From assembly GCA_054600435.1 (NCBI GenBank), contig BAAIJX010000004.1, positions 805,159 to 825,158 on the forward strand: a DNA stretch of 20,000 nucleotides, in the 5' to 3' direction. The stretch comes from Neophaeotheca triangularis (taxonomy: Eukaryota). A model generated the notes under the pieces. The model saw nothing but the letters and a program-made list of their open reading frames with translations. It did not search any database and was not told the origin of the DNA. Below, piece after piece: positions 283 through 20,000 of the stretch. Positions within the stretch are counted from its first letter, which is position 1; each line of letters starts with the position of its first letter. The position numbers and the translations under genes were made by a program.

Positions 283-1303
283 GGTGCTCGGATCTAGATG
301 GGAACGGGGTGGTGGAGGGCAGGAGCGTAGGGGCGGGCGGGTGGTTTCAACACGACCATATGTTGATGGGGATTGTAGATGAGGTGGGCTTTTTTCCTTT
401 CTTTCTTCGTAGCGGAATGGGCGCTTGGGTGGGTGGTGTCGGCCGGGCCACCCCGTAATTACTGTTCGATACCAAAAAAGGGCTCGGTCTGGATTGTGTG
501 GATAGCGAAGAGAAAAGTACCAACTCTTAAGCTCCTACCCATCTCTTGGTCCTCCCGGCACTTTCGCTCATTTCTCCTTTTATGCCGCAGATGCAGACGC
601 CACGTTTCACAAGGGAGGCCTGTGCTTTTTGTGCCACCCACTCATTCACAGCGACGTCATTGTCCATCCTCTTCGCTGCTTACGTAAACAGCCTGGAGGC
701 ACCCACCCACCACCTTCAGGTGAGCAAGCTACCTTACCTTAAACACACTGAGACAACCTTAAACCTACCCGACTACAGAACCTCACGTTGCATTTCTACC
801 TTGACCACCGTATCCGATTCCTCCACTTATTCCACCCATTCCGCAGCTCACTCGACTGCGCCACGCCACCACTTGGACTCGCGAGCAGCCCGCAGGACTA
901 TAGGCAGCCTTGTCTCCGCCGTCCTTCCTTGTCGGCAGCAGCTTGATTGAGTCGGGAGCGGGAAGAGGATACCTTACCGGTCAAAGACAAAAGGAGCAAG
1001 TCACGGGACGCAAAGACGGACGGAAGCTTTTGATAAGCGGATCGCGCTGCGCAGACTGGGCTGACTGGCTCGGGCCCGTTTGCTGGGTCAAGGTTGTGAA
1101 GAGGAGGGCTTTGCTTCTCGTCACTTCTGCCTGCTCAATACTCTGGAGACTGTGGAAGCTGAAGTGTCTTCGTTGTCTCGACTCAGCAAGCGCTTGTCGT
1201 GGTTGAACTCATAGCTACGCTGAGCGCTAGACCTTGCAACTCTCACGCTTTTGACCTACCAACCAACCAACGACATCCAACTTGACGACGACCTACCACA
1301 AAC

Positions 1304-2881
1304 ATGGCCGACGACCGCCGCTCCCGCTCGCCCCATCGCAGCGATCCTCCCTCTCCTCCCTCTCCTCCCGCTTCAGTCCCTCCAAACCGACCAAACAACT
1401 GCGAGATCATGTACTGCCATGAATGCGAAAACGAATGGTACCGCCAAGACAGCGGCCTCACTTGCCCAGAGTGTCGTTCAGATTTCACCGAAGTCATTGA
1501 AGATGGCAACGATCCGCGGGATCCACCGGAAGAGGTGCCGGAACCGGGTTTAGCTTGGGAGGGGTTGAGAGGGCATAGGCCTTGGGGAGAGGAGGGTGGT
1601 GATGGTGATGGTGGTTTGCATTGGACACTCAATGGGCAGGGTGGGATGAGGGCGACTATTAGGAGGGATGTTACGCTTGGAGGAGATCAGCAGGGCCAGG
1701 GTCAGGGTCAGGGGTTTCTGGGTATGTTTACGCCTATGCTGCAGGGGTTGTTAGGGGCCGGGCAGCAGCAGGCTCAGCAGAGGACTCAGCAGCATCAGCA
1801 TGAGGAGGGACTGGATGAAGGAGAAGACGGACAGCAGCAAGGTAGAGGAGGCGGGAGTACAACACACAGACACTTCAGCGGCCCGGGCTTCACCATGTCG
1901 TACACAACCACTACCAGCGGCGGCATGACACGTGGAGGCATGATGGGCGGCGGTATGATGGGAGGTGGCGGCGAAATGAACAATCCCGGCCTCCAACCCC
2001 GCGATGCCAACAATCCACAACCTATGCAGGGCCAACCCGACGACTTGCAAAACATCCTCAACCAAATGTTCATGAACATTGGCGCTGGACCCGGCGCGGA
2101 CGGCCATCACCATCATCACCCTCACCACCAACATCCACCCTTTGCACACGGCGGTGGGGGGGGCGGCCCAGGCATGCCCTTCGGCAACCTCTTCCAGCTC
2201 CTCGGCCTCCCCGGCGGCGGCCCCCTCGGCGGCGGCCAAATGGGCGACGCCGTCTTCTCCCAAGAAGCCCTCGACCGCGTCATCTCGCAACTCATGGAAC
2301 AGCATCAATCCGGCAACGCGCCGGGTCCGGCCTCTCGCACCGCCATCGACGCCCTTCATACCAAAACCCTCACCCCATCCGACCTTGATCCCGCAACGGG
2401 CAAAGCCGATTGCAGCATTTGCATGGAGGACGTCGAAGTTGGCGGCGAGGTCACCGTTCTGCCTTGCAAACATTGGTTCCATCGCGAGTGTGTCGCTGCT
2501 TGGCTGGGTGAGCATGATACTTGTCCACAGTGTCGGAGGGGGATTATGGCGAAGACTGGTGAGGATGGGGAGGGCAGGGTCAGGGGTGAGGGTGAGGAGC
2601 CCAGGGTTGATATGAGTAATCCGCCTCCCTCTACTGCTGGTGCTGCGGGTGGGGCGGCGCAGGGTGGCATGGGCCAGGCTTCGCGCCAGGGTATGCCTGG
2701 TGGTATCCCCAATGAGGGATTTCCAGGACAGGGATACGGTCAGGCTACTGGCGATGCCGGCGCTGGAGGTGTTTTCGGCCGTATGAGGCAGGCTTTTGGC
2801 AATGGCGGTGGTAGTGGTGGTGCGGCTGGAGGAGCTTCAGGTGGTTCGCAGCAGCCGCCACCGCCGGCTTCGGGACAGTAG
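1304..2881 (+). CDS. RING-H2 E3 ubiquitin ligase, RNF126/RNF115-like
   Basis: N-terminal zinc ribbon YCHEC...TCPECRSDFTE; conserved 'GDAVFSQEALDRVISQLMEQ...APGPAS..AI..L' segment; RING-H2 CSICMED...LPCKHWFHRECVAAWLGEHDTCPQCR; Gly/Gln-rich linkers. Confidence 0.9.
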   Translation: MADDRRSRSPHRSDPPSPPSPPASVPPNRPNNCEIMYCHECENEWYRQDSGLTCPECRSDFTEVIEDGNDPRDPPEEVPEPGLAWEGLRGHRPWGEEGGDGDGGLHWTLNGQGGMRATIRRDVTLGGDQQGQGQGQGFLGMFTPMLQGLLGAGQQQAQQRTQQHQHEEGLDEGEDGQQQGRGGGSTTHRHFSGPGFTMSYTTTTSGGMTRGGMMGGGMMGGGGEMNNPGLQPRDANNPQPMQGQPDDLQNILNQMFMNIGAGPGADGHHHHHPHHQHPPFAHGGGGGGPGMPFGNLFQLLGLPGGGPLGGGQMGDAVFSQEALDRVISQLMEQHQSGNAPGPASRTAIDALHTKTLTPSDLDPATGKADCSICMEDVEVGGEVTVLPCKHWFHRECVAAWLGEHDTCPQCRRGIMAKTGEDGEGRVRGEGEEPRVDMSNPPPSTAGAAGGAAQGGMGQASRQGMPGGIPNEGFPGQGYGQATGDAGAGGVFGRMRQAFGNGGGSGGAAGGASGGSQQPPPPASGQ

Positions 2882-3622: not shown

Positions 3623-5254
3623 TCATTTTCCCTTCTCAAAAACACACTCCCCCTCAAACCACGTCCCAGTAACCCTCGCTTGCTCAAACTCTCCCTTGAC
3701 CAAATCGCCTCCCTCCACCCTTACAAAATTCGCAACCTTCCCAACCTCCAAACTTCCTAACTCACCCTCCCTCCCCACAGCCTCCGCCCCCGCCATTGTC
3801 AGCAACCTCACCACAATCTCACCCCCAGCTCCCCTGTCCCCATGCCCTAGAGTCTCAACCACAGCCTGCAAACACGGCAACAAGTCCGGCGCATCTCCCG
3901 CCCCCCAATCGCTGCCTAGACTCATAGCCGCGCCCGCCTGCTGCATGCTGCCGAAATCCCAATCCATCAATCCCCCACTCGCAGCCGTCACGGGGTGCGC
4001 GAAGAAGAAAGCCGGCGACATTTCCGCCGTCACCCGCAGTTCGCGGAACTGGGCGTAGTCTTCGGCGTGCACGCCGCTGCAGTGGGCGATTTCGTGCCGC
4101 GGCCCCGATGGGTTGGACGCGCGCACCGAGCGCAGCGTTTGCAGTGCGAACCGCGTGGCGCCTTGGCCGGTGCAGTGGATTTTGACCGTGCGGACGTGGG
4201 AGTCGTGGTGCAGCAGGGCGGGAAGCAGGTCCGCGGCCGGCATAAGGAGTTTGCTGTCGTCGACGCAGGTGCCGTGGTCGTTGGTGGCATTCTCTTCGAG
4301 CAGGGGTGCGTGTGTGCTGTAAGGGGGCAGGGGTACGCCGTCGAGGATGATTTTTACAAACCGCGTGTCCACGTGCTGTGACTGGTAGGTGGAGGTAGCG
4401 GTTTCAATGAGTGAGTGTAGGCTTGAGGCGGACTCGTCCCCGATCCACTCCGGGGCATGCACGATGTGTGGGAACATGTGCAGTTTGAGTTGGTTTTGCT
4501 TCTCGAGCGCCCGGAGGCCTTGGAGCATGGGTGTGTTGGCTGAGGCTTCTTGGCAGGATGTCACGCCGGCTGCGTGGAGCTTCTTCTGTGCGGCCAGCAG
4601 TACTCGTTGGATGTGAGGGAGGCCGGGTTGTGGGATGGCGAGCATTGCTTTGGTAAGGCTGTTTTCGGCCATTTCTCCCGTGAGATGGCCGTTGGAGTCT
4701 CGAAAGTAGCGTGTCCCTTGCCCGTCTGGTTCGTCTTCGATGGAGTAGCCTGCTCGCTCTAGGGCAGCCGTGTTCATGAAGGCACTGTGCGCCGCGCCGC
4801 CGCGTATCAAGACGGGCGTATCGGGGTAGTCAACATCCAGGGCTTTGCGGTCGAAGTTGTCGATGAGAAAGTTGTGGGCAATGAGCCAGTCCTCGTGGAT
4901 GTTGGCGAACTTACACCCGCAGCTGCCTTTACGGAGCTCATCTGCGACATTATCGTTGGTGAGACCGTGTCCGGGTAGCTTGATGTGCGAGGTCATGGAT
5001 ATGCCTGACGCGAGCATGTGCACGTGGGCGTCGTGAATGCCCGGCATGATGAAGTGCCCTCCCAGGTCTGAAACAATGAGGCTTTCATCTTTGGCTTTTT
5101 TCCTCATTTCCTCGTTGCTCCCGATTGCGGTGAAGATGCCTTTTGCGGACACAGCGAATGCTTCGGCCCATGGTTGTCTTGGGTTGACGGTGTAGATTCG
5201 TCCGTTGATGTAGGCTGTGCCGTTCTCGCCCGGTCTCGGTCTGGTGGAAGCCAT
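3623..5254 (-). CDS. Metal-dependent amidohydrolase, Amidohydro_3 / YtcJ-like
   Basis: Uninterrupted 543-aa ORF with NGRIYTVN..QPWAEAFAV, PGIHDAHVH (HxH), H.AFMNTAAL, KIILDG, KIHCTG, RHEIAHC, GSDW and GSLEVGKVANFV. Substrate unknown. Confidence 0.88.
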   Translation of the reverse strand: MASTRPRPGENGTAYINGRIYTVNPRQPWAEAFAVSAKGIFTAIGSNEEMRKKAKDESLIVSDLGGHFIMPGIHDAHVHMLASGISMTSHIKLPGHGLTNDNVADELRKGSCGCKFANIHEDWLIAHNFLIDNFDRKALDVDYPDTPVLIRGGAAHSAFMNTAALERAGYSIEDEPDGQGTRYFRDSNGHLTGEMAENSLTKAMLAIPQPGLPHIQRVLLAAQKKLHAAGVTSCQEASANTPMLQGLRALEKQNQLKLHMFPHIVHAPEWIGDESASSLHSLIETATSTYQSQHVDTRFVKIILDGVPLPPYSTHAPLLEENATNDHGTCVDDSKLLMPAADLLPALLHHDSHVRTVKIHCTGQGATRFALQTLRSVRASNPSGPRHEIAHCSGVHAEDYAQFRELRVTAEMSPAFFFAHPVTAASGGLMDWDFGSMQQAGAAMSLGSDWGAGDAPDLLPCLQAVVETLGHGDRGAGGEIVVRLLTMAGAEAVGREGELGSLEVGKVANFVRVEGGDLVKGEFEQARVTGTWFEGECVFEKGK

Positions 5255-5957
5255 GTTGAGTCGGTGGTTCTATCAATTATGCCGAGGCGAGATTGACACC
5301 TTGCTGGAGTGTAACGAAGGCGTTTGGGAGGTTGTCGTTAATCGTCGTCTGTCTAGACTTGATCTACCGAGGAGAGATACCGTGGCCTCTGGCGTGCGGA
5401 GTAGTTATCTAGCCACATACTGTAAATCTGGGCATTCTATCAAGACCCATCTGCCGAGCATCTTCATCGGTGGAGAGCGTCGCGTGCATCGAGGCTTTAG
5501 AAAAAAGGATGAAAGGAGGGTAGTACAGCGCGGGTTGTGAATAGGAAGTACCTATTCGTAGTGAGGAAGCTACATAACCTACAAACTGTTGATGAGCGGG
5601 GAAACCGAACCCTTATAACGGTCCCTTAATTCACCCTTAGAACCCCATCTATCTTGACTATGATGATAGCTCGGTTTTGGCAATTGTATATTGGTATGCT
5701 TCAACTCTATGCAAACAGTGTAGGACTCTACACGAAGTGGAAGATCGACCAATACTATCACTTTTTCCTCTAGAAAGTTTAGTGAAGCCCACGCCCCCAG
5801 ATGTGATTCACTGATTCATTAGCCGCCCAGATGCAAAGCGAACGCTTCGTTTGCAGACTTGCTACATGGCTTCCTGCATGTGCTGCCCCGGAAGAAGCAT
5901 CGATGTCGAAAAGGCTACCCATCTCAACCAACCCTCAATCCTAACCCCCAATCGTCC

Positions 5958-7034
5958 CTAGCAGCACTTGGCAGTAGGGGGCTGCTGTGTACTCGGATCC
6001 GCATCTTTCCTACCCACAAAGGGGCCCCGGTGGACTGATGCGTCTCCTTTGACGGTGAAATGCGGTGCGTAGCGTGTAGCGTTTAAGATCTTCGCGGTAT
6101 TCCCCGATACCGGTATGGGCGTTCCTCGTTGGAAAACAGAGCGGTTGTCGAGAGTGAACGTATCTGCATAGCCTTCGATACCGCCGCCATAAGTAGCCGT
6201 CTGCCCGTAATCTTCCGCACTTTTTTCCAAGCTCAATTTGAAAGCTCGTACTGTGCAGGACTGAAAGGAAAATGCGCCAATCTTCCGCTCCATTTCCGCA
6301 TCGTTGAGACTGATGGGCGTGTTGGAGACAACCCTGTAGTCCATACAGCCGACTGAAGCCAGCATCGCGCCGAATGCCTCCCAGTTCCACGCTCCCGCAA
6401 GACATTCGCCTACCATGACCGGATCCTGAGAGTACTCGGCGGGAATCGGGCGATCGGAAAAGACATCGGAAAAGTAGAGCTCGCCGCCCGGTTTGAGCAC
6501 GCGGAAGATCTCGCCGATTGCCTGCGGTTTGTTGTCCGAAAGATTCAAGACGCAATTCGAGATGACCAGGTCCATGGAGTTATCCTCGATACCAACGCCA
6601 GCGAGATCTTCAATCCGACCAGTTTCGATATCGACATTGGCAACGCCGAATTTCTCTGCGTGCCAGCTCAGGTTTGCCTTTGCAATAGCGGCCTGTTCTT
6701 CGGTAGTGTCGACGCCGACGACCCTTCCCTCACGGCCGACAAGCTGAGACAGAACGAAACAGTCGCGCCCGCTTCCGCATCCAGCATCCAAGACTTTGAC
6801 GCCGTCGAGACATGGCGGAATGGGCGAGCCGCACCCGTAAAAGCGGTTCTTCACTTCCTCGCTCACGTTTTCCAGGGCGCGAGCTACCAGTTTGTCCGAG
6901 GGCTTGGCAGCTGTGCAGGCGGAAGTCCTCAGGTCGCTCGAGCACGACAATGTCTTGCCGTAGTATTCCTGCACCCCTCCGACGTGGTCAGCAGGGGAGT
7001 TGTTGTTACATGCCCCCATGGTGGTATGTAGCAT
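5958..7034 (-). CDS. arsM: Arsenite S-adenosylmethionine methyltransferase (ArsM/AS3MT family)
   Basis: VQEYYGKTL..S.DLRTSAC, RFYGCG, SAM motif VLDAGCGSGRDC, DLVISNCVLNL, FRVLKPGGELYFSDV, GECLAGA. All four canonical As-binding Cys positions are present, plus a C-terminal CC. Intronless; the start may be a nearby downstream ATG. Confidence 0.93.
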   Translation of the reverse strand: MLHTTMGACNNNSPADHVGGVQEYYGKTLSCSSDLRTSACTAAKPSDKLVARALENVSEEVKNRFYGCGSPIPPCLDGVKVLDAGCGSGRDCFVLSQLVGREGRVVGVDTTEEQAAIAKANLSWHAEKFGVANVDIETGRIEDLAGVGIEDNSMDLVISNCVLNLSDNKPQAIGEIFRVLKPGGELYFSDVFSDRPIPAEYSQDPVMVGECLAGAWNWEAFGAMLASVGCMDYRVVSNTPISLNDAEMERKIGAFSFQSCTVRAFKLSLEKSAEDYGQTATYGGGIEGYADTFTLDNRSVFQRGTPIPVSGNTAKILNATRYAPHFTVKGDASVHRGPFVGRKDADPSTQQPPTAKCC

Positions 7035-7477
7035 GAAAGTGTTTCAAGCAATGATATCTGGAAAGCACCGCAGCGACTTCAACCCGCCATCAAGTACTCC
7101 CTCCATTCTCCGGACAGCGGCTGGCTGGGCACCCCACGTCGCCACTCACTGCGCGACGAATTGCCGCGGTGTAGTGACATGCCCCAGCAAGCCCAGGCAA
7201 TAAAATAATACAACACAACGACAACAGCACCTCTGCAGTGACATGATACTGGAAGAACTCTAGCCGCTGTATGAGAGACCACATGGTGACTTGTCGGACG
7301 CCGGGAATTGTGTTAAGCAGCGTTGAATTGTGCTGGAAAGATCCGACCTCTCATTGACCAGCATCATTCATTAATCATCGTCACTTCTATTCGTGCCACT
7401 CCAGCTATCTCTTCTCTCCTAACATCTTCTCTCCTATGTCCTTGTGCTCTGGCTCGTCCAGGTAGCTCTGACTTCCC
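7035..7477. promoter_or_regulatory. Divergent (probably bidirectional) promoter region between arsM and arsS
   Basis: Head-to-head genes about 440 bp apart; AT-rich element AATAAAATAATAA near 7199-7211; pyrimidine-rich tract before the arsS ATG. Inferred from gene geometry. Confidence 0.55.
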
Positions 7478-8970
7478 ATGTCTCGATCCCGACTAAAGGC
7501 TGGCCTATCCGAAGTGCCCAACTTGAAGGGCTTCATGCGACAGAACCCTGAGCGCCTCGAGCGACAAGCTCGGGAGCGACGTCGTGTAGGGCATGAAATC
7601 GCATTCACAGAGGGCATGCTCAGTACTGACGGCTCGAATCAGATGTTCGACGACGCAAGTGCCGCCGTCCCTGCTTTCTCCCAGACCCTCCGCTCCCAAG
7701 GCCTTGGGCCGTTGAGGCGAGGTTTGTCTTGCTATGTCCGCCTGGATCTCACAGCGGCTGATCGATAATCCAGCTACCCCCACTGTCTTGCAAATCAACA
7801 TTGGCAAATTTTGCAACCTGAACTGTCGACACTGTCATGTTGAATCTGGCCCGACCAAGACGCGGGAAAACATGGACCTGAAGGTAGCCAAGCACCAACC
7901 AACCAGACGGACGACCGAGCGATTAACACTTCCCAGACTGTGCAGCGATGCATTGATTTGCTGAAGAGGAGGTTCGGATATAGATCAAACTGGCCGAGGT
8001 CATGCGCTAACTCTTGCGCAGTCCGACTGTCGACACTGTCGACATCACTGGCGGAGCGCCCGAGTTGAACCCTTTCTTTCGTACCTTGGTGACAGAGGTA
8101 TGCTTTATCTTCCTGTCGGTGTATTCTCTCGCGCTAATACTGGACACAGGCCAGGGCTATGGGCAAGAAAGTCATCGACCGATGTAATCTTGCAGTACTC
8201 TTCGAGAAAGGTCAGGAGGATTTGGCTGGCTTCCTCGCCAGTCAAGACGTCAGCGTGGTTGCCTCTTTGCCCTGCTATACCCCAGATAATACCGATAAAC
8301 AGCGTGGAAAACGTGTTTTTGACGACAGGTTGGTCCCTTTTTCCCAGCTTGCCTTCCCAACCTGCTTCACTAATTCTCGATGTTTTAGCATCACCGCGCT
8401 GAAGCTCCTAAACGACCAAGGCTTCGGTCGTCCTACAGCCCCAGGAACAGACTCCAAAAGAGCTCTCGACCTGGTGTACAACCCCATCAACGAATCTCTC
8501 CCTCCCCCGCAAGCTGCACTGGAGGCGCAATACCGGGACCGCTTGTGGGAAGACCACCAGATTACTTTCAACTCTCTCTTCGCCATCACAAACATGCCCA
8601 TCAAGCGGTTCGCCGACGACCTCTTCAACACCGGTCGATACACGGCGTACATGGAAACCCTTGCGCAAGCTTTCAACCCTGGCACCGTGGGAGGTCTCAT
8701 GTGCCGCCAGACTGTCAACGTAGCTTGGGATGGGAAAATATACGATTGCGATTTCAACGCTGCGCTGGAACTCAATACCGCTGGGAGCGAGCCTTCTAGC
8801 AAGCTCGATGTTTGGGCTCTGGGTTGGTATCATCTGCGGACTATATTGGACCCTGGCTAATGCATACAGAAAACCTTTCCGAGTTGGATGGCGGAGCGAT
8901 TCGAACGGATAAGCATTGTTATGGGTGCACGGCTGGTTAGGGATCAAGCTGCGGCGGCGTGTTGGTTTGA
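7478..8970 (+). CDS. arsS: Arsenosugar biosynthesis radical SAM protein (ArsS; rSAM + DUF3641, TIGR04167-like), 8 predicted exons, internal TAG at 8938-8940
   Basis: Hand-spliced exons 7478-7585, 7643-7721, 7774-7883, 7937-7971, 8022-8097, 8150-8328, 8389-8822, 8870-8970 total 1122 nt in frame. Introns are 47-60 nt GT..AG with branch-like motifs. Product has LQINIGKFCNLNCRHCHVESGP (CxxxCxxC), DITGGAPELNP, IDRCNL, VVASLPCY, QRG..VF..SI.AL..LN..G.G, LDLVYNP, LPPPQ..LE, FNSLFAITNMPIKRF, LMCR, WDG.IYDCDFN and HCYGCTAG*GSSCGG. The start codon and first intron (7586-7642) are less certain. Confidence 0.88.
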
Positions 8971-9130
8971 GTAATGCTCGCTTGTTCTGGCTTTGCCGTC
9001 ATTAAGCATGGTCGGCCCTCTGGGAATATATATTAGTCAAGTAACAGGATCACGAAATATGCATGTCAACGATCCAAACGGCGCTCGTACTCTTGTCACA
9101 GTGTGTCACCATCCACTCGTTTGTCACGTC

Positions 9131-9880
9131 CTACGCATTCTGCTCCGACATGACAGTGCTGAGGTAAGCCATGGTCCGAGGAAAAGGCGTTTGCTTGTCT
9201 TCGCGCGTTTTCCACAAGCCATCTAGATCTGCAGGCTCATCGACGTCCGGCAGCGCCTGAGCAACGTCACAAGTCAACCCGGCATCCATCAATCGCTGTA
9301 CCTGCATCTGACCCGTCTGGTCGCTCGACCACGAGATTTGCGAGAAGATGGCTTCTCCGCTGCAGTCTAGCGGAACAGTCAGCAAGACGTATCCGCCGTC
9401 GTACGCAGGAATCATGAAGGCGTTGCCATGGTGTGTTGATGGCCAATGCATGGCGGTCGAGAAGGTCCCGGGCGTCAGATCGAAGCAATCCATGCCGATG
9501 AAAGTGACACTGGGTCTCGAAACAGACACAACCCCCGCCGTAGACTGAGTAGGACTACGGTGAGAATTCTGGATGAAATCAAGGGCGCCGCTTAGACGAC
9601 CGCCGAGATCAGGAGTCTCGGATTGGCACTGCAGCTCCCATGAATCGTTGAGAGACTCGCTTTTGAGCAAGGCTTGGAGTTCCGGCCTAGCAGTCGCGGG
9701 CGTGTAGAACAGAATGCGGCGACAGGAGGGAAGCGTGCCCGTGAGGTGTAGGAGATCAGTCAGGGCTGCTTTTGCAAATGTGCATGCCCCGTCGGGGCCT
9801 AGACGGGGGTTGAGGCGAGTCTTGCTGCGACCTGGTGTTGGTGCCCTCGCTAGCAGGCCAAGATAGTTAGTGCAACTCAT
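9131..9880 (-). CDS. TIGR04282/DUF2064 family transferase (rSAM/selenodomain-associated transferase 1; arsenosugar-associated, CofC-like fold)
   Basis: ARAPTPGRSKTRL..LG..GA, Q...DLGGRL, FIGMDC..L, PAYDGGYVLL, IFSQISWSS and LPDVDEPADL match the recalled family consensus (KAPxPGxVKTRL, DLGERM, IGSDCP, GPAxDGGYYL, WST, DVDxxEDL). Intronless. Confidence 0.88.
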   Translation of the reverse strand: MSCTNYLGLLARAPTPGRSKTRLNPRLGPDGACTFAKAALTDLLHLTGTLPSCRRILFYTPATARPELQALLKSESLNDSWELQCQSETPDLGGRLSGALDFIQNSHRSPTQSTAGVVSVSRPSVTFIGMDCFDLTPGTFSTAMHWPSTHHGNAFMIPAYDGGYVLLTVPLDCSGEAIFSQISWSSDQTGQMQVQRLMDAGLTCDVAQALPDVDEPADLDGLWKTREDKQTPFPRTMAYLSTVMSEQNA

Positions 9881-10108
9881 GCTGGTAACATGCGTAGGAG
9901 CTCTCGGTATTAAGAGGCAATGCTTATGGAGAGGGGGAGAAGTAAATCTATCTATCTACCGCTGAGGACCCGCATGTCTCTTCCAGAGGTCCGTGCGCGC
10001 CAGGTAAAGCGAGGACTTTCCTCCGTTCAGCTTTCGTCCACCCTCCTGTCCATTATGTGCCGCATTCGGCTTCGTCTAATCTAGCGGAATAAATACACTT
10101 GGACGGAA
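9881..10108. promoter_or_regulatory. Short divergent promoter region between the TIGR04282 and TIGR04283 genes
   Basis: Only 228 bp separate the two head-to-head start codons. Confidence 0.55.
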
Positions 10109-11002
10109 ATGTTTGGTGTAGTCGTACTCTTAAGCGTGCTGCTTGCCGTCGCCATCCTCTACCTTGGTCGGAAGAGTAGCGAACGTTCTCAAAATGTCAG
10201 TACACTGAGCAAATCGCCCGATTCCAAAGCCTCTAGGTCCGTCGCGGTGATTGTGCCAACGCTCCAGGAGACTTCAGTACTTCCCAAGACCATCAATCGA
10301 CTATTTTCTCGAGCCAGCACTTCGAGCAAGGACGATAGCCCGCATGTAGCCGCCTCAATCACCGTCGTCGTGGTTGACGCCTCGCCTACCTCTGCTACCA
10401 GGGAGTGTCTCGACCCTCTAATGACTACTCAACCCTCGTTGCACCTAGTACATTATCCTGGAAAACCTTCACGAGGTGCGCAGATGAACTTCGGAGCCGC
10501 GCACGCTATCAAGCTGGCACCCGAAACCTCGACGTTCGTCTTCCTTCATGCCGACACTCACCTGCCGTTTGCGTGGAACGATGCCATCTGCACTCTTTTG
10601 TCTTCCACGCAAGTCCCGACTCTAGGATGCTTCAAGCTCTCCCTTTCGCCGCCTATCTCACTAGGTTTACAGACGATGCTGTGGTGCGCGAATCAGCGTG
10701 CGAAATGGGGCGGGTTGCCCTATGGGGATCAGTGCTATTTCCTATCTCGAGCTACCTACGATACCGTTCATGGATTCCCGTCGGTGCCTATCATGGAAGA
10801 TCTAGGTATGCTGCGGCGAATCTCACGGATAGGGCAAGTAGTTGTTCTCGACGCAGTAGTGGAGACCAATTCACGTCGGTGGAATAGAAAGGGCGTGCTG
10901 TGGAACACGGTACTCAACCAGATACTTGTCGCTGCCTGGCTGTGCGGTGCCTCGCATGAGAGTATCTATCGATGGTATTATGGTCGAGATGTCTCGGGCT
11001 AG
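10109..11002 (+). CDS. TIGR04283 family GT2 glycosyltransferase (rSAM/selenodomain-associated transferase 2; arsenosugar-associated) with N-terminal membrane anchor
   Basis: VIVPTLQE, VVVVD, RGAQMNFGA, FLHADT.LP, GLPYGDQ..F, GFP.VPIMED, TNSRRW...GVL..T.LN and Y.WYY match the family pattern; hydrophobic N-terminus FGVVVLLSVLLAVAILYL. Intronless. Confidence 0.9.
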   Translation: MFGVVVLLSVLLAVAILYLGRKSSERSQNVSTLSKSPDSKASRSVAVIVPTLQETSVLPKTINRLFSRASTSSKDDSPHVAASITVVVVDASPTSATRECLDPLMTTQPSLHLVHYPGKPSRGAQMNFGAAHAIKLAPETSTFVFLHADTHLPFAWNDAICTLLSSTQVPTLGCFKLSLSPPISLGLQTMLWCANQRAKWGGLPYGDQCYFLSRATYDTVHGFPSVPIMEDLGMLRRISRIGQVVVLDAVVETNSRRWNRKGVLWNTVLNQILVAAWLCGASHESIYRWYYGRDVSG

Positions 11003-11029
11003 TGTACGTTAGTACTACCGACTACTACC

Positions 11030-11688
11030 TATACGGGAATCTCACTCCTAGCTTATATAGACTTGTCATTAATAAAGCCTTATCAAATTAAAATCAATTC
11101 GCCTACTGTTTCGACTTGAACTTAGTGTTAAATCTAGACTAATTCAATTAAACTATAGACCTTAAAAACATTAGGGTCCTATAACACGTGAATTCCTAGG
11201 TTTAGTAGAAGGAATTCAACCCTAACTTCTATCCTTAAAAATATTAGACCCTAATGTCACCTAAATTCCTAGTATAACTACTCTAATAGTATAACTCTGT
11301 TTTACTAGCAAAATTTAGAAAATTAGTTTTTATAGAAGCTAGAGAGTTTTTAAAGACTCCTAGGCAGTTTTCCTACTAGATCTATAAAGCTCTAGCTTCC
11401 TTAAAAAACTATATAGAAGCTCTAGAAAACTCTATTACTTATAGGAAAACTAAGTATAGATTCTCCTAGATAGTATATTATTTATCTAGAACCTTAAGAA
11501 GTTTTCTAGGATTAACTTATAGTTTTCTTAGGAGAGAGTAGGTCTAAGGAAGCTAAGAAACTAAAAATTAAGTTAATAGAAACTCTAGAGCTTTCTAGAA
11601 AACTATAAGTACTTATAGAACTAAGGTACTTCTAAACTCCTAATAAATATACCCTCTAGAGCTATATAGGTCTAAGATAAGTCTAAAT
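11030..11688. repeat. AT-rich, heavily RIP-mutated repeat relic (left part, interrupted by the LTR element)
   Basis: Abrupt GC drop just after the GT2 stop; strong TpA excess and CpA/TpG depletion; no ORFs. The left boundary is approximate. Confidence 0.75.
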
Positions 11689-12107
11689 TGTTACGGCCAA
11701 GCTAAGCAGAGCTGGAATTCCTAGTCGGAGCCAGGGTCTAACCCTAAGGCTTACCGGACACGTGATCTCAGAACTAGCTAAGACGTTCGCTTAGACTTTA
11801 ACTAAGCATGCTCGCTTAGACTTAGACTGAGTCTAAGCCAGGACACTTAGGATCAGTCTAATCCTAAGCACGACGGATTAGTCAAGAACTGATCTAACAC
11901 GAATCTCCTATATATATAGCTAGCGATATTTCCTAGGTAGAGATTTATGTTTAACTCATGTTACAATCTTACTGAAAGGTCTATAGCGACACTTCACGTA
12001 TCTTTGAAATCCTTACGATAAAGGAAACACCCTTGCTAGCCTTCTTCGACATCTCTCCTCTTCCGCTACGAGCTCTACCCGTGAGACTACCTTGTAGGAT
12101 CGCAACA
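11689..12107 (+). repeat. 5' LTR
   Basis: TGTTAC...GCAACA; 13 mismatches to the 3' LTR by manual comparison. Confidence 0.95.
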
Positions 12108-12147
12108 CTTTAAACACCCTCTAGGAAAGAGAGATTAATAGGCAAGT

Positions 12148-14367
12148 ATGTCCCTATCCGATAACCGAGACGCAAGCGTCGCTAGCACTTAACGAGGAGT
12201 ATTAACTATGGTTACTAGTAAGGTTGCTAAACCGGACTACTTCTATAGCGAACGTAACAAGCTAGACGACTAGGTCAACTAGATGATGATGTTCTTCCTT
12301 ATAGAAAGCGTTAGTAAGTAGAAGCAACCTCTTACTACTGCTTCGTTCCTTCGAGGAGAAGCTTAACACTAGATCCGCCCTAAGCTTACGGATTTCCTTA
12401 TAGAACGAATCGACCCCGAAGGACTGTTCTCGAACTAGAAGTCTTTCGTCAAAGTTATCCGCAACGTCTATAGATTGAGCAACGATCGACAAGTTGCTAT
12501 CCGAATGATTTAGCACCTTACGTAGAAAACGTCTGCCTCTTAGTACACTGCCAAATTTCAGGAGCACTTAGCCAAGACTGACTAGGACGACAACGCTCTT
12601 ATGACCATGTACTACCGAGGACTTAAAGATAACGTGAAGGACGAACTTATACGCCACGGAGGCGATCAGTCAACTCTCCCCGGTATGATCAAATTAGCGA
12701 TTAAAGTTAATGACGCTCTCTACGAACGGTTTATAGAAAAACGCCACACTAGACAATTTCGCGGACGAACTAGCTATGCTACCGGCAGCCGGCCTGTCGG
12801 TTAGCAACGTCGCGATCCTAATGCGATAGAACTCGACTCTACGCAATAGCGTCCTAGGAAGGGCAGGGATGGAGGACGGGGCAAACAGAACGCCCTAGGC
12901 AAGAAACGGAACGGACCGGAATGCTATAACTACTACAAGATAGGGCACTATGTACGAGACTGCCGTGGGAAACAGATGCGCCCACGATAGGAGGTTAATG
13001 CGATTTTGACCCGACAGGATAACGACTCTCCTACCGATAAGAGCCGCGGAGCTTACGACATTACCGGAACCTACGAAGAACCGGAACACGACGAACTTTA
13101 CTAGAGGTTTTGCGAAAGGGATTATTGCTTAGTGCATAAAAGTCAAGGACTAGTAACTAACGGTATATCTACTAAACCTCGGAAGGAAGTGAACGTCATC
13201 GAACGAGTTACCCTAAAGTCCGGAACGGACGCACTAATCGAGCAATACTAGAAGCTTAGGGAGTTTCACGACGACTTAGTTAGTCATAAGGAATAGACTA
13301 AAGAGCACTTCAACCTTATGATCTAAGTAGCCGATTAGATAGCAGATCTGAACGACAGGATTAAGGCCATAACAGAGGAAGAATCTAAGTAACTACGCAA
13401 GCCTTAGAAGGAACTCAACATAATGTCAAGACGCTAACCATTATAGCAGTTAAGGGACGACGGCAACGCAGCCCGAGGAAGGTCCCCACCTCTATTTGTA
13501 TAGGAGGACGACAAACTGCAAGAAAACCAAGTACTATTACCGATGATGGCACTACTAACACCCGACTTAGACAACGAAGAAATATCTTAGACACTAGAAC
13601 TCACTGCGATCGTACTAACACCGGAGATTAGCCCCTTAAGACTATCGATGCCCCTAGAGATTCTAGAATCGTAAGAAGATACGACAGTGACGGATTCCGA
13701 AGACGACTCCGAATACGACTATACCGACGATAACGAACCAGACGATAACGACGTAGCAGAGTTCATTATGCACGGACTAAACCTAATCAAGAAGATAGTC
13801 ATTCACATTGCACGATCGTACGAAGAAGTGTTCCTAAGGATCTAAGGCAAGCGACGCTTAGAACCTAATCAATTCGAAGCCATGCTTATGCGATTACGAG
13901 CAATGTTCTAGGACTACCGAAAGGTCGCCGTCGAGTATGACGCTGCCACCTTTGTCTAGGACAGGCTACTAATGGGAAGCACTTTTCACGGAGAAAACGG
14001 CTACATTACGCTAGACGGGATACGAATCCCACATTCTATAAGACAACGAGTCAAAATAGTCAAGAATCGTTACAGAGAATTCTAGCTCATTTAGGAGCAA
14101 TGGAGAGAAGAAGAAATCACGCTACAAGAAATGAAGAAGCAAGTACAGGATTCCTTAGACTAATAGACTATAGTACCGCGCGACAAGTTCTTACTACTAG
14201 TCGACCGAAAGATGATCCTCGGACATGTTAAAGTAACCACACGAGGACCTATCACCGTACACGCAATCTAAGGAAAAGTCACGATCAGACCTCGGGACGG
14301 ACCCCTTTACTAGGAAGTCTCTCTCGAAACAGCGGATTTATCTACCTACTTCTCAAAAAACGAATAG
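12148..14367 (+). pseudogene. gag: gag pseudogene (long; many RIP stops)
   Basis: ATG at 12148; KVAKPDYFY.ERNKLDD, MYYRGLKDNVKDEL; degenerate CCHC knuckle ECYNYYKIGHYVRDC at ~12919-12963; frame ends with TCA AAA AAC GAA TAG. Confidence 0.8.
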
Positions 14368-17300
14368 GACCTGTCGCTAAGAGCGAGCGTTAGGAACTGA
14401 ACAACACAAATGCTTAACACGAAATAGCATTAGGAACGGTCTTCCGAACAACATGTACTGTCGACGGATACGAAACCCTCGCCATAATAGATTCCGGAGC
14501 CAGCGGAAACTTTATCTCGGAAACTTTCGTACGTTAGCATGGGCTAGCTACCTAGAAGAAAACAGATGGCGGGTACGAACTAATGGCCGTAGACGGCTTA
14601 TCACTACCCGACGTGGATAGCGAAACAGTACCGCTACTACTTGTCTTCTAAAAGCATCACGAGCGAATTGTCCTAGACGTTATGCCTATGGCTAGACATA
14701 ACGTCGTTCTAGGCACTCCTTGGTTAGAACGACACAATCCTATAGTGGATTAGAGAAAACGAGTACTTACATTCGACAGGTGTAGTTGCGTCACTACAAC
14801 CTACCCTGCGCGCCGGCAGCGATCGACGGCAGATAAGAGAAGGTAGATTAACGAGACATATCGCTAATCGACCACGATACTAATACGAATTGGATCGGAC
14901 TCTATAGGTGCCGAACTAGCCTAAACGGACTAACAAGTAAGAGTTAAGGAAGGAAGTCACGTACCTTTAGATATCCCTAGAGAATTCAGAAAATGGAAGC
15001 GCCTTTTCTAGGAAGAGGAAGGAGCAGCCGCTCTACCTAGACATTAACTATAGGACTACCGAATCGACATTCAGCCCGGTGCGAAGATACTATAGGGGCC
15101 ACTTTACGCGCTATCCGAAAAAGAGCTCGAAGAGTAACGACGATGGCTAGATGAAAAAATGAAGAAAGGATAGATTCGACCCTCTACTTCATTAGCCGCT
15201 TCACCACCGTTTTTCGTTCCGAAGAAAGGAGGAAAACTACGAATGGTTATCGATTTCAGACGACTTAATGCGATCACCACCAAAAACCGTTATCCACTAC
15301 CTAACATCGACGAAATAAGGGATCGACTCACCGGTTCACACTAGTTCACTAAGATCGATCTTCGAGATGCATTCTATTCAGTTAGAATAGCAAGGGGGGA
15401 AGAGTAGAAAACAGCTTTTCGAACGCGCTACGGACTTTACGAATTCCAGGTCATGCCTATAGGACTCACGAATGCCCTAGCAACCTATTAACAACTCGTT
15501 AACGACATCCTACGAGACCTACTCGATATCACTGTCATCGCTTACATCGACGACATATTGGTCTTCACGAAAGGATCACGAGAACAACATACTAAGGACG
15601 TACACGCAGTATTCGAACGACTCGACAAAGTAGACTTCAGAACAGCACTAGAGAAATGCGAGTTCTATAAGAAGGAAGTCGACTTTCTAGGTTTTGTGAT
15701 TAGCACTACCGGGATCCGAATAGACCCGAAGAAAACTTAATCGATCGAGGAATGGCTAACACCTAAGTTAGTCAAGGACATCTAAGCATTCCTCGGATTA
15801 GCTAACTACAATCGGAAATTCGTGAAGGATTACTTAAGGCTCGCTACGCCTCTAACTAACCTTACGAAAAAGGACACACCATTCGTATAGGGAAAGATTT
15901 AACAACAATCCTTCGACAAGCTTAAGGAGTCATGCACGACTGCTCCTACGCTAAGGATGTTTGACCCTAAGAAACCAATTCAAATCGAAACCGATGCCTC
16001 CGACAGAGCAATAGGAGCTTGCCTCACGTAGGAGGTTGAAAGTAAACGACACCCTATCGCTTACTTCTTAAGGAAGATGTCACTAGCGGAATAGAACTAC
16101 GAGATCTACGACAAAGAACTGCTCGCAATCGTTACAGCATTGCGATACTAGAGAGTGTACTGTAAAGGAGTAACCGGACTAACTATTTACTCGGATCACA
16201 AGAACCTGCAATACTTCATAACAACTAAGGAATTGTCACGCCGACAATGCAGATAGTTAGAGCTACTCGGACAATACAAGTTCGACATAGTCTACACTCC
16301 CGGAAAAGACAATAGGCGCGCCGACGCGCTAAGTAGAAGAAGCGACTACATAGAAGGACACCTTCTATAGCAACACCGTATACTGAAGGTTAATAAGGAC
16401 GGAAGCCTAAGCGCTAACCCCTAGGAATTTAACTTAGTACTACGAGTACTTAGGGATAACACCGAGGAATTCCCTGTCGAACATAGGAAGTTCAGGGTTC
16501 TAAACGAAAGGGAACGCTAGTGCATCTAGGACTACCACGATGGACCTACTAACGGACATCTAGGAATCGCTAGAACAGTAGAACACATTAGACGCAACTT
16601 CGTGTTCCCCGGAATGAGACAGAAGGTCTTAGAGTACATCAAGAAATGTACGAGCTGCTAACGAAACAAAGCTTCGAGACACGCTAAATATGGGAACCTA
16701 CAATTCTAGGAGCCACCGGATCTACCATGGAACGAGGTCACAATGGATTTTATCGTCAAGTTACTAAGATCTAAGGACCCGTCAACAAGCAAGAACTACG
16801 ATTCAATTCTAGTCATAGTCGATAGACTCACGAAGTATTCACATTTCGTTCCCTACAACGAGACAATCACTGTAGAAGAACTCGGATACCTTGTTCTCGA
16901 CAGATTAGTACGATACCACGGCATTCTAACGGTTCTAATTACGGATAGAGACAAGCTCTTCACATCTAACTACTAGAAGACCTTGATATTAGCGATAGGA
17001 GTGAAACACAAGCTCTTAACAGCATTTCACCCCGAAACCGATAGATAGACAGAACGCTCAAACTAATCCCTCGAGACGTACTTAAGACATTACGTTAACT
17101 ACGCTTAGGACAATTAGGTAGCGCTCTTACCTATAGTACAGCTCGCACTCAACAACAATGCCTTAGAAACGACAGGCTTAACTCCGTTCTATGCAAATTT
17201 CGGAAAGGATCTAAACACATTTATAGAACTAAAGCTAGGACCGCTCGTAGAAAGAGCCCTACAAACTTCTTCGTAGCTGTAGGAGGCACATAAATAGGCG

Positions 17301-17807
17301 AAAGACAAAATTACATAGTCGTAATAGCGACTCGAGTCATAAAGACATAAGGACTCCAAAACGGCACCTTAGCTTAAGAAGGGGGATAAGGTATACCTAC
17401 TCACGAAAAACCTAAAGACAAGGAGACGAACACGAAAACTAGACTATGTTAAAGTCGGACCGTTTCTAGTTAAAGAACAAAGAGGAAAAGTCAACTACCT
17501 CCTCTAACTCCTAAAAGACGCTAGAATCCACCTAGTCTTCCATATATCCTTGCTCGAACTAGTAGACCCCGAAACACTAATCCAAGACACCTTTCACTAC
17601 GATCCACTAGAGGAAGAAGCCGAGTACGAGGTCGAAAAGATTCTAGACAAGGACGGTTAGAACTACCTCGTGAAATGGAAAGGTTACCACGCAAGCGAAA
17701 ACACTTAGGAACCTAAGGACAACTTACTTAACTGCTAGAAGGCCCTGTAATAATATCATCAGGACCGAAATCCTAAAGCTCGGAAGGAAGATCTAAGCCG
17801 TCGATAG
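14355..17807 (+). pseudogene. pol: pol pseudogene: protease, RT, RNase H, integrase, chromodomain
   Basis: All domains share one frame: AIIDSGASGNF (14481), [22 protein letters not shown] (15543), IETDASD.AIGA, H..GH.G...C..C, MDFIVKL (16743), and chromodomain EYEVEKIL...YLVKWKGY..SENT*EP (17622). Stops mostly fall at Gln/Trp positions. Confidence 0.92.
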
Positions 17808-17856
17808 CACTCTAGTCCTACGTCGACATCTCTAGAATACTAACAAAGCCTAGACG

Positions 17857-18345
17857 CTACGCAACCTTAACCCTAGTGTTAACCGGACCCAAGAGATCTT
17901 CCTCTAACCGATCCACTTGCTCTAAATCCTCTAACTCTCTAGACACCGCGGTTTCCGTGCGACCCTTAGCATGACGAAGCTGTTTTCGCAACCGCAACTT
18001 TTTCGAACGACGCTCGTGCAGTTTTTGTAAAAGCTCGAGCTCCTCCTCCTTACACTCCTCCAACTGCCGTTGCAGTTTGTTGCGTGAATCTCTCCATTTT
18101 TCCCACTTAGGACGACTAAGCTTTGCGTCACACTTAGTATACCCTTTGCGTATATATTCCGAACACCGACTAGATCGAGCACTAATCATACATCGTACTG
18201 GTTCGGCCGAAGGCGATTTCCTCGTAGATCGACAGGCTAAACAGGGTGCCATATTGGTTGTTCTAGACTTCTCGATTTCGGCCGAGAGATTAAGACGTTG
18301 TTGTTTACGGGACAGGGTAGAAGACATCGCGAAACTTAATGACAA
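17857..18345 (-). CDS. Antisense accessory ORF of the retrotransposon: Zn2Cys6-like Cys motif plus coiled coil
   Basis: 162 open codons between pol and the PPT; PCLAC...RC...RCSE(Y)IRKGYTKC followed by a charged heptad-like helix. Expression unknown. Confidence 0.5.
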   Translation of the reverse strand: MSLSFAMSSTLSRKQQRLNLSAEIEKSRTTNMAPCLACRSTRKSPSAEPVRCMISARSSRCSEYIRKGYTKCDAKLSRPKWEKWRDSRNKLQRQLEECKEEELELLQKLHERRSKKLRLRKQLRHAKGRTETAVSRELEDLEQVDRLEEDLLGPVNTRVKVA

Positions 18346-18411
18346 AACGATGTGGGGAATGACGGAACTTTATCAGGCTTCGAGGACGAAGCTAGGCTAA
18401 AAGGGGGATAG

Positions 18412-18830
18412 TGTTACTGCTAAGCTAAGCAGAGCTAGAATTCCTAGTCGGAGCCAGGGTCTAACCCTAAGGCTTGCCGGACACGTGATCTTAGAACTAG
18501 CTAAGACGTTCGCTTAGACTTTAACTAAGTATGCTCGCTTAGACTTAGACTAAGTCTAAGCCAGGACACTTAGGATCAGTCTGATCCTAAGCACGACGGA
18601 TTAGTCAAGAACTGATCTAACACGAATCTCCTATGTATATAGCTAGCGATATTTCCTAGGTAGAGATTTGTGTTCAACTCATGTTACAATCTTACTGAAA
18701 GGTCTATAGCGACACTTCACGTATCTTTGAAATCCTTACGACAAAGGAAACACCCTTGCTAGCCTTCTTCGACATCTCTCCTCTTCCGCTACGAGCTCTA
18801 CCCGTGAGACTACCTTGTAGGATCGTAACA
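18412..18830 (+). repeat. 3' LTR
   Basis: TGTTAC...GTAACA; preceded by the PPT and followed by the TSD TAAAT. Confidence 0.95.
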
Positions 18831-18835
18831 TAAAT

Positions 18836-20000
18836 ATACTTTAAAGTAAAGTATCTAGGGAATATATAGCTTAATAGTAAACCCTTAGGTATCTACTACC
18901 CTACTCGGTAGTAGAACTAACTTATACCGGCAAAAAACGGTCTATTTTACTAGCAAATTTAAATTCTTGTTTTTTTAGTAGTAGAACCGGGAATTTCGAT
19001 ATTTTAAGGTAAGGAATCGATTCCTAAGGGCTTAAATACCCTAGAAAACATATTAAAACATTAGATTTACTTAAGTCTCTTAATAGGGTAGGGTAAAGGC
19101 CCTAGACCTTAGGGTATAATCCTAATTTCTAAAAAGGGAAATTTTGTAAAATCTAAAGTTATAGTCTTCTTCTTTAGGGTCTATATAGCTACTTTATAGC
19201 TTAAAAGTATAGGAATACCTAGTGTAGTAATTAAATAAGGGTGCTTTTAGATTAGAGTTAGAGATATTAAGGAACTTAGGCCTTATAAAATATAGGAGGG
19301 GTTTATACTTAATAGGAACTTTACCCTAGCCTTTTTTAGGGTTTAGGAAGTTATATACTAAGCCTATATAAGTATTAAAGGGTGTACTAAGGTTATTAAA
19401 GAATTAAATCTAGTTTAAAGTAAAGAATCTTAAGGATAACTAAAGTATTATAGGATTAACATCTAGTATATATAAGTAATAGTATTCTTAGGGTTTATAT
19501 AGATCTTTAGCGATTAATAGAGTATATTAAAAGTCTCTTTATAGTAGTAGAGGCCCTTAGTAGTACTAGTAAGACTAAATTAGAATAAGGTCTCTCTTAC
19601 TAGTAAAGTACTTTAAGGACTATCTCTAGACTAGCGCTATTATATTAGACTACTACTATATTATAATAGTATTTAAAAGGTCTTTAGGCTCCTAAGTAAC
19701 TTAGCTTAAAGCTCTAGTAGTTTATTATAAGTTAAAGGGAAGTTAAGAAGTATAGTAAATAAGGTAAAGTAGAAATAATAGGGAGTAATATATTATTATA
19801 AAGTAAATAAGATTAGGATATATATAAGGTAATATAAATATACTATTCTCTTTAGGTATACTTAAGCTCTCTTTTAGCTAAAGGATTAGTCTATAAGTAG
19901 TAGTAATGTATATAGATAAGGATCCTTAGCCTAAAACTAAAATTTAGTATAGAGATAGTAGTAATAGGGGTATAACTATAAAATCTTTAGGGTTAGCTCT
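18836..20000. repeat. AT-rich, heavily RIP-mutated repeat relic (continues past the window)
   Basis: Very low GC, extreme TpA excess, CpA/TpG nearly absent, no ORFs; original element not identifiable. Confidence 0.8.

Follow-up and report, generated by a model that had tools for sequence, protein, structure and literature searches.

A polymorphic in-frame TAG in the last exon of an ArsS gene from Neophaeotheca triangularis, at the edge of the conserved Cys/Sec tail

The stretch of DNA analysed here (the window, 20,000 nt from Neophaeotheca triangularis) was found to contain a seven-exon fungal ArsS gene at 7478-8970 on the forward strand. The gene lies in a compact set of four genes of bacterial type (5958-11002), all of whose families are named in NCBIfam for arsenosugar biosynthesis (Table 1). 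The open reading frames of the three neighbours gave full-length family matches, with both transferases scoring somewhat below the curated bacterial cut-offs. ArsS is divided by six short introns, while its three cluster neighbours are uninterrupted. No description of such a fungal arsenosugar cluster was found in a literature search.

Table 1. Positions of the ArsS gene, of the in-frame stop and of the surrounding features in the window
Feature	Position	Strand	Basis or remark
RING-finger protein ORF (zf-RING_2)	1286-2881	+	E 8e-17; looks like an ordinary flanking gene
Amidohydrolase ORF (Amidohydro_3)	3623-5269	-	E 5e-44; looks like an ordinary flanking gene
ArsM-like arsenite methyltransferase ORF	5958-7043	-	divergent from ArsS; uninterrupted, ends in TAG
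ArsS exons	7478-7721, 7774-7883, 7937-7971, 8022-8097, 8150-8328, 8389-8822, 8870-8970	+	tblastn and GT-AG check
In-frame TAG, ArsS codon 383	8938-8940	+	base 8939 is A in the window, C (TCG, Ser) in X2
Nine intact codons (GSSCGGVLV) and original TGA	8941-8970	+	invariant Cys387 at 8950-8952
TIGR04282-like arsenosugar glycosyltransferase ORF	9131-9955	-	108.8 bits, cut-off 134; uninterrupted, ends in TAG
TIGR04283-like arsenosugar glycosyltransferase ORF	10085-11002	+	170.9 bits, cut-off 182; uninterrupted, ends in TAG
AT-rich, RIP-like degraded retroelement block	11001-20000		GC content and dinucleotide indices; context, not part of the lesion

The ArsS exons were placed by searching the window with fungal homologues (tblastn), and the GT-AG boundaries were then checked. 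All six introns are of the GT-AG type and measure 47-60 nt. Counted from the ATG at 7478, the reading frame comprises 392 codons followed by a TGA, and a TAG at codon 383 is the sole break in the frame of the gene model. Exons 5-6, read through the intron between them, matched the ArsS family profile TIGR04167 (arsenosugar biosynthesis radical SAM (seleno)protein) with 231.8 bits, and the last exon, with an X put at the stop, matched its positions 275-303 of 303 with 36.1 bits (E 4e-9); the curated cut-off of 300 bits applies to the whole protein, and the ArsS of the window was scored in these pieces. The DUF3641 domain (PF12345) was detected in exons 5-6 with 127.6 bits, for a cut-off of 24.9, and the last exon, again with an X at the stop, matched positions 108-133 of the 134 of this profile with 36.8 bits. 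Exon 2 gave a weak match to PF04055 (E 0.0025). The CX3CX2C triad of radical SAM enzymes is present as C95/C99/C102 in CNLNCRHC, and its columns are invariant in an alignment of 78 sequences. Further cysteines lie in two motifs, CX9GX4C (residues 320-335) and CX2C (residues 376/379). The alignment has 75 invariant columns, and the ArsS of the window keeps every one of them, including the G, S, S, C, G and G that are encoded beyond the stop.

The closest database protein, P0002, is labelled Neophaeotheca triangularis and is identical to the ArsS gene model over 201 residues. This public model of 213 aa is incorrect at either end: it starts in exon 5, leaving out the radical SAM domain, and runs on into the last intron, leaving out the final exon. 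Several further database models of fungal or eukaryote-like origin (P0007-P0011, P0014 and P0017) likewise stop no later than the last intron. Compared with the characterised TIGR04167 ArsS of cyanobacteria, the fungal gene has the same CX3CX2C triad and DUF3641 domain, its DNA keeps HCYGCTAGxGSSCGG, and ArsM and two family-associated transferases adjoin it. It differs in being eukaryotic, in having six spliceosomal introns, in the extension of its N-terminus by about 85 aa, and in that the frame of the window is cut at position x of the motif, so that the encoded product is left without the GSS(C/U)GG tail.

The stop lies in the C-terminal motif encoded by the last exon, where 8914-8970 reads CAT TGT TAT GGG TGC ACG GCT GGT TAG GGA TCA AGC TGC GGC GGC GTG TTG GTT TGA. 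Translation of this segment gave HCYGCTAG[X]GSSCGGVLV, closed by the TGA at 8968-8970. The presence of an in-frame TAG within the C-terminal motif of ArsS, with the nine codons beyond it intact, had been proposed in an earlier note on this DNA, and was confirmed by the sequence, its translation and the profile matches. As judged from the DNA, the homology passes through the TAG and continues until the family profile ends, far beyond what chance would produce. The lengths given earlier for the interrupted and the complete protein (363 and 373 aa) become 382 and 392 aa with the ATG at 7478, and the difference of ten codons is the same. The product is predicted to end after HCYGCTAG, without GSSCGGVLV, and the complete motif HC(Y/F)xCTAGxGSS(C/U)GG is absent from it, the TAG occupying position x; the allele of a second sample, X2 (see below), encodes the motif in full. 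Two ways of accommodating the TAG without a lesion were considered and rejected. A very short intron excising it would have to be GTTAG or a 13-nt GT...CAAG, either of which is far shorter than the 47-60 nt of the introns of this gene, and a reassigned genetic code is contradicted by the three neighbouring genes, each of which ends in TAG where its family homology ends.

The residue expected at codon 383 was examined in homologues. Six of the best 14 homologues have a complete C-terminus, in which codon 383 corresponds to S, S, S, A, T and A, with GSSCGG following in each case, and the remaining eight are models whose end lies within the last intron or ahead of it. In a comparison at the protein level, Ser is found in all three of the closest fungal homologues that have a complete C-terminus. 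In a wider set of 120 homologues, the motif pattern was matched in 109, with the distribution A91, S10, N3, R2, C2 and T1 at codon 383, and neither Gln nor Trp was found at this position in any of the 109. Among the 11 without a pattern match, a CTSG variant, together with Ala and the Cys, is seen in two, and one has a divergent end. Of the residues observed, only Ser (as TCG) is a single step away from TAG. The stop is not conserved, since a sense residue is found in X2 and in all six fungal homologues with a complete C-terminus.

Whereas codon 383 is variable, the last cysteine beyond it (Cys387) does not vary among the aligned full-length homologues (78 of 78), and each of the 109 motif matches has Cys at the corresponding residue. 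That one of the C-terminal cysteines of the family is selenocysteine (Sec) in some bacteria had been stated before, and a collection of bacterial and archaeal genomes was searched for the back-translated motif with TGA at the Cys387 position. The search returned 100 bacterial loci, of which 95 have ArsS context and five look like chance matches, and the 95 loci bear the statement out. They show C(Y/F)x-CTAGxGSS-TGA-GG behind a long open frame, usually with five more codons to the stop, and when the TGA was read through, six of six tested loci passed the TIGR04167 cut-off (394-439 bits against 300). The residue predicted to be removed by the TAG is the Cys/Sec site of the ArsS family. The TGA form of ArsS is found frequently in Gram-positive anaerobes associated with hosts (Gemella, Anaerococcus, Parvimonas and Fenollaria) and in Eggerthellaceae and Coriobacteriales, and it also occurs in Nitrospirota-like, Ktedonobacteraceae and deltaproteobacterial MAGs.

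Four public runs (X1, X2, X11 and X4) were compared, as Logan contigs, with positions 7450-9050 of the window. The first of these, X1, which may be the source run of the window, yielded a single contig of 13,314 nt with a word depth of 129.5 and no bubble; it keeps the TAG and shows no difference from the window over 1601 bases. Since X1 may be the window's own data, this agreement makes an assembly error less likely without bearing on an artefact of the sample itself, and since contigs drop rare variants, a minor TCG subpopulation in X1 is possible. The second run, X2, carries the same organism label and derives from another sample. It has a C at 8939, with a depth of 108/108, so that codon 383 reads TCG (Ser) and the ArsS frame is open to the normal TGA. 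The earlier note had called for this codon to be compared in another isolate and had expected CAG; a sense codon was indeed found, although it is TCG. Over the 1601 bases, X2 differs from the window at 16 positions, nine of them transitions and seven transversions. The flanking changes in the last exon are harmless, 8928 C>T being synonymous (Cys) and 8965 G>A replacing Val by Ile. The coding differences comprise eight synonymous and seven non-synonymous changes, the nonsense change included, numbers that do not suffice for a test of relaxed constraint. The informative isolates thus number two (X1 and X2), as the third sample with the same label, X11, yielded no contig over 7450-9050.

Because Ser is the state both of the three closest fungi and of X2, the mutation is read as TCG>TAG, a C>A transversion. 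The TAG is therefore interpreted as a real genomic nonsense allele, polymorphic within the species, in which Ser383 was lost by a single C>A change in the last exon, and a probability of about 0.8 is assigned to this reading. The lesion is taken to be recent because everything else in the gene, as well as the three cluster neighbours, is intact; on the sequence evidence, a single mutation has recently struck a four-gene cluster that is intact elsewhere. That the nonsense change is recent and specific to the strain, and that the last conserved Cys is lost through it, had been suggested earlier, and this part of the suggestion agrees well with the TCG of X2 and with the intact remainder of the gene. 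Oxidised guanine typically gives rise to G:C>T:A transversions, and one may speculate that the C>A change at 8939 had such an origin.

A different origin had initially been favoured, in which a CAG (Gln) codon was hit by a CpA>TpA change leaking from a repeat block about 2 kb downstream through repeat-induced point mutation (RIP). The block itself was correctly recognised. Positions 11001-20000 have a GC content of 27-49%, a positive AT skew and many stops, with a TpA/ApT index of 1.15-2.07 and a (CpA+TpG)/(ApC+GpT) index of 0.09-0.67, and a fragment at 15492-15737, broken by stops, matches the reverse transcriptase family RVT_1 (E 1e-14). It is probably a RIP-degraded retrotransposon, and its position about 2 kb downstream of ArsS lends the proposal what plausibility it has. 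The proposed route through CAG, however, did not survive comparison with the other sequences. Its starting codon is missing, for the sister isolate X2 has TCG and the closest fungi have Ser, while Gln occurs in none of the 109 motif-bearing homologues and in only three of the 95 distant bacterial Sec forms. Moreover, RIP, a fungal process, produces only C:G>T:A transitions, mainly CpA>TpA, so that it cannot generate TCG>TAG, which is a transversion. None of the 16 differences between X1 and X2 carries the CpA>TpA signature in the lineage of the window, that is, at none of them does the window have TpA where X2 has CpA or TpG, and the indices of ArsS itself are not RIP-like (TpA/ApT 0.64; (CpA+TpG)/(ApC+GpT) 1.24). 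The repeat block has left no mark on ArsS, and leakage of RIP into the gene is regarded as extremely improbable.

Explanations in which the stop is bypassed or spurious were weighed against the nonsense allele as well. Recoding as Sec had been discounted in the earlier note, with good reason: the TAG occupies a variable position four codons upstream of the Cys/Sec site and is absent from X2; TAG is not known to be decoded as Sec, and most fungi are not known to possess the Sec machinery. No tRNA gene was found in the 20,000-nt window. The bacterial selenoprotein forms of ArsS do resemble the fungal gene in having an in-frame stop within the same C-terminal motif and homology beyond it, but their stop is a TGA at the Cys position itself, conserved over 95 loci, unlike the fungal TAG at a position otherwise held by a variable, small residue. 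Simple readthrough, in which ribosomes would pass the UAG often enough to supply useful full-length ArsS, so that the allele is tolerated, would be in keeping with the nine intact, in-frame codons downstream and with the basal readthrough known from eukaryotes in general. Intact downstream codons are, however, equally expected after a recent mutation, the stop is not shared with X2, the GGA UCA that follows it is not a readthrough context of the CAR-YYA type, and the three neighbouring genes use the same TAG as their terminator; readthrough on this scale is considered unlikely. A-to-I editing of the mRNA would turn UAG into UGG (Trp) and restore the frame, and the U at -1 of the edited A is the context favoured in editing by Sordariomycetes. 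Against this, Trp is found at the position in none of the 109 homologues and none of the 95 bacterial Sec forms, the other allele of the species encodes Ser, and stage-specific editing of this kind is described in Sordariomycetes and some Pezizomycetes and is not known from this Dothideomycete lineage. Editing thus has a negligible share among the explanations, similar to that of RIP. Finally, the isolate might truly be TCG and the TAG an error of sequencing or assembly, an alternative that the earlier note had also raised and that gains something from the fact that a single base is concerned and that X1 and the window may represent one data set. The independently assembled X1 contig nevertheless keeps the TAG at a depth of 129.5, without a bubble and without a difference over its 1601 compared bases, which speaks against an assembly error, and the public model P0002 avoids the last exon, consistent with a stop there. 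An error of either kind is judged very unlikely. Neither editing nor readthrough is needed to explain the data, and the TAG allele is ordinary biology, a strain-specific nonsense polymorphism that arose by natural mutation.

The consequences of the nonsense allele for the protein were considered with the help of a structural model. ArsS is described as adding the 5'-deoxyadenosyl radical to dimethylarsenite, yielding 5'-deoxy-5'-dimethylarsinoyl-adenosine (PMC13598754; bioRxiv 10.64898/2026.04.29.721666). No solved ArsS structure was found, the sole sequence match being SkfB (E 7e-4), and a literature search yielded no account of fungal ArsS or of what the C-terminal cysteines of ArsS do. The AlphaFold model of a full-length fungal homologue, P0013, has a mean pLDDT of 84.9 and a pTM of 0.81, and is confident except in the N-terminal extension and in the last ten residues, the mean pLDDT falling from 92 for residues 391-400 to 54 for the tail (residues 401-410). 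Its best fold matches are radical SAM enzymes of the Twitch/SPASM group, led by SkfB (Z 19.6, rmsd 2.9, 235 residues aligned, model residues 106-397) and followed by SuiB (Z 18.3), ChlB (Z 17.7), BlsE (Z 17.6) and anSME (Z 16.8). ArsS, as modelled in P0013, shares its predicted fold with the Twitch/SPASM enzymes (SkfB, SuiB, anSME, BtrN and MoaA), and the protein of the window has CX9GX4C and CX2C, the ligand pattern of a Twitch-type auxiliary cluster. ArsS departs from these enzymes in having an additional invariant Cys/Sec, located in the low-confidence tail past the last aligned helix. The model suggests that the DUF3641 domain of ArsS holds an auxiliary Fe-S cluster and presents the Cys/Sec on a flexible tail.

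From these features, a course of events in the TAG isolate may be outlined. Translation would end at the TAG, which serves as an ordinary stop in the Neophaeotheca triangularis genome. As a rule, an mRNA whose stop lies in the last exon escapes nonsense-mediated decay; the ArsS transcript would be expected to do so, and a truncated protein would then be made. This product of 382 instead of 392 aa would keep the radical SAM core and the four cysteines of the putative auxiliary cluster, and would lose the flexible tail GSSCGGVLV with Cys387. Its conservation, together with its substitution by Sec, suggests that the tail residue may handle or bind the trivalent arsenic substrate, or take part in a redox step. 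The truncated enzyme would then be a null or a strong hypomorph, and the arsenosugar pathway would be blocked after ArsM in the TAG isolate. By its sequence, the TAG allele is probably a loss-of-function or weakened allele. That the truncated ArsS, or a rare readthrough product, still supports arsenosugar synthesis appears unlikely; if it were so, the invariant Cys/Sec tail would be dispensable or required only for the delivery of the substrate, and a bacterial-type four-gene arsenosugar cluster would be at work in a Dothideomycete.

The allele has close parallels among the nonsense polymorphisms of dispensable fungal metabolic clusters, where a single point mutation has likewise arisen recently in one isolate, with the rest of the gene and cluster intact and a functional allele in a sister isolate. 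The ArsS lesion is special only in that it removes just the Cys/Sec tail. For annotators, it is a warning that ArsS is probably a fresh pseudogene or hypomorph in the TAG isolate. For biochemists, the isolates with TAG383 (predicted to be tail-less) and Ser383 (full-length) form a natural allelic pair, which offers a ready comparison for the role of the Cys/Sec tail and also bears on whether fungi with a cluster of ArsM, ArsS and transferases make arsenosugars. The modest value of the locus lies in this natural truncation variant and in the indication it gives that a Dothideomycete has an arsenosugar cluster of bacterial type.

Some further observations concern the distribution of the gene and the makeup of the second sample. 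In X4, the RNA library of a marine metatranscriptome, a 134-nt piece identical to 8533-8666 (exon 6) was found, with adaptor ends and a depth of 3.5, alongside five pieces of low identity that probably belong to other organisms; the 134-nt piece, the sole RNA-library piece identical to the window, ends short of the TAG and is a weak hint of the organism or its transcript in seawater, which falls short of proof of transcription. The exact 24-nt stretch just 3' of the TAG had no match among JGI metagenome contigs. At 8170-8283, X2 is represented by two contigs with depths of 76.9 and 57.6, one of which equals the window while the other has five differences. The flanks of this segment are single contigs with depths of 108-127, and X2 is uniformly C at 8939. 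X2 carries two local haplotypes, as a diploid, heterokaryotic or mixed sample would, or as would follow from a duplicated segment.
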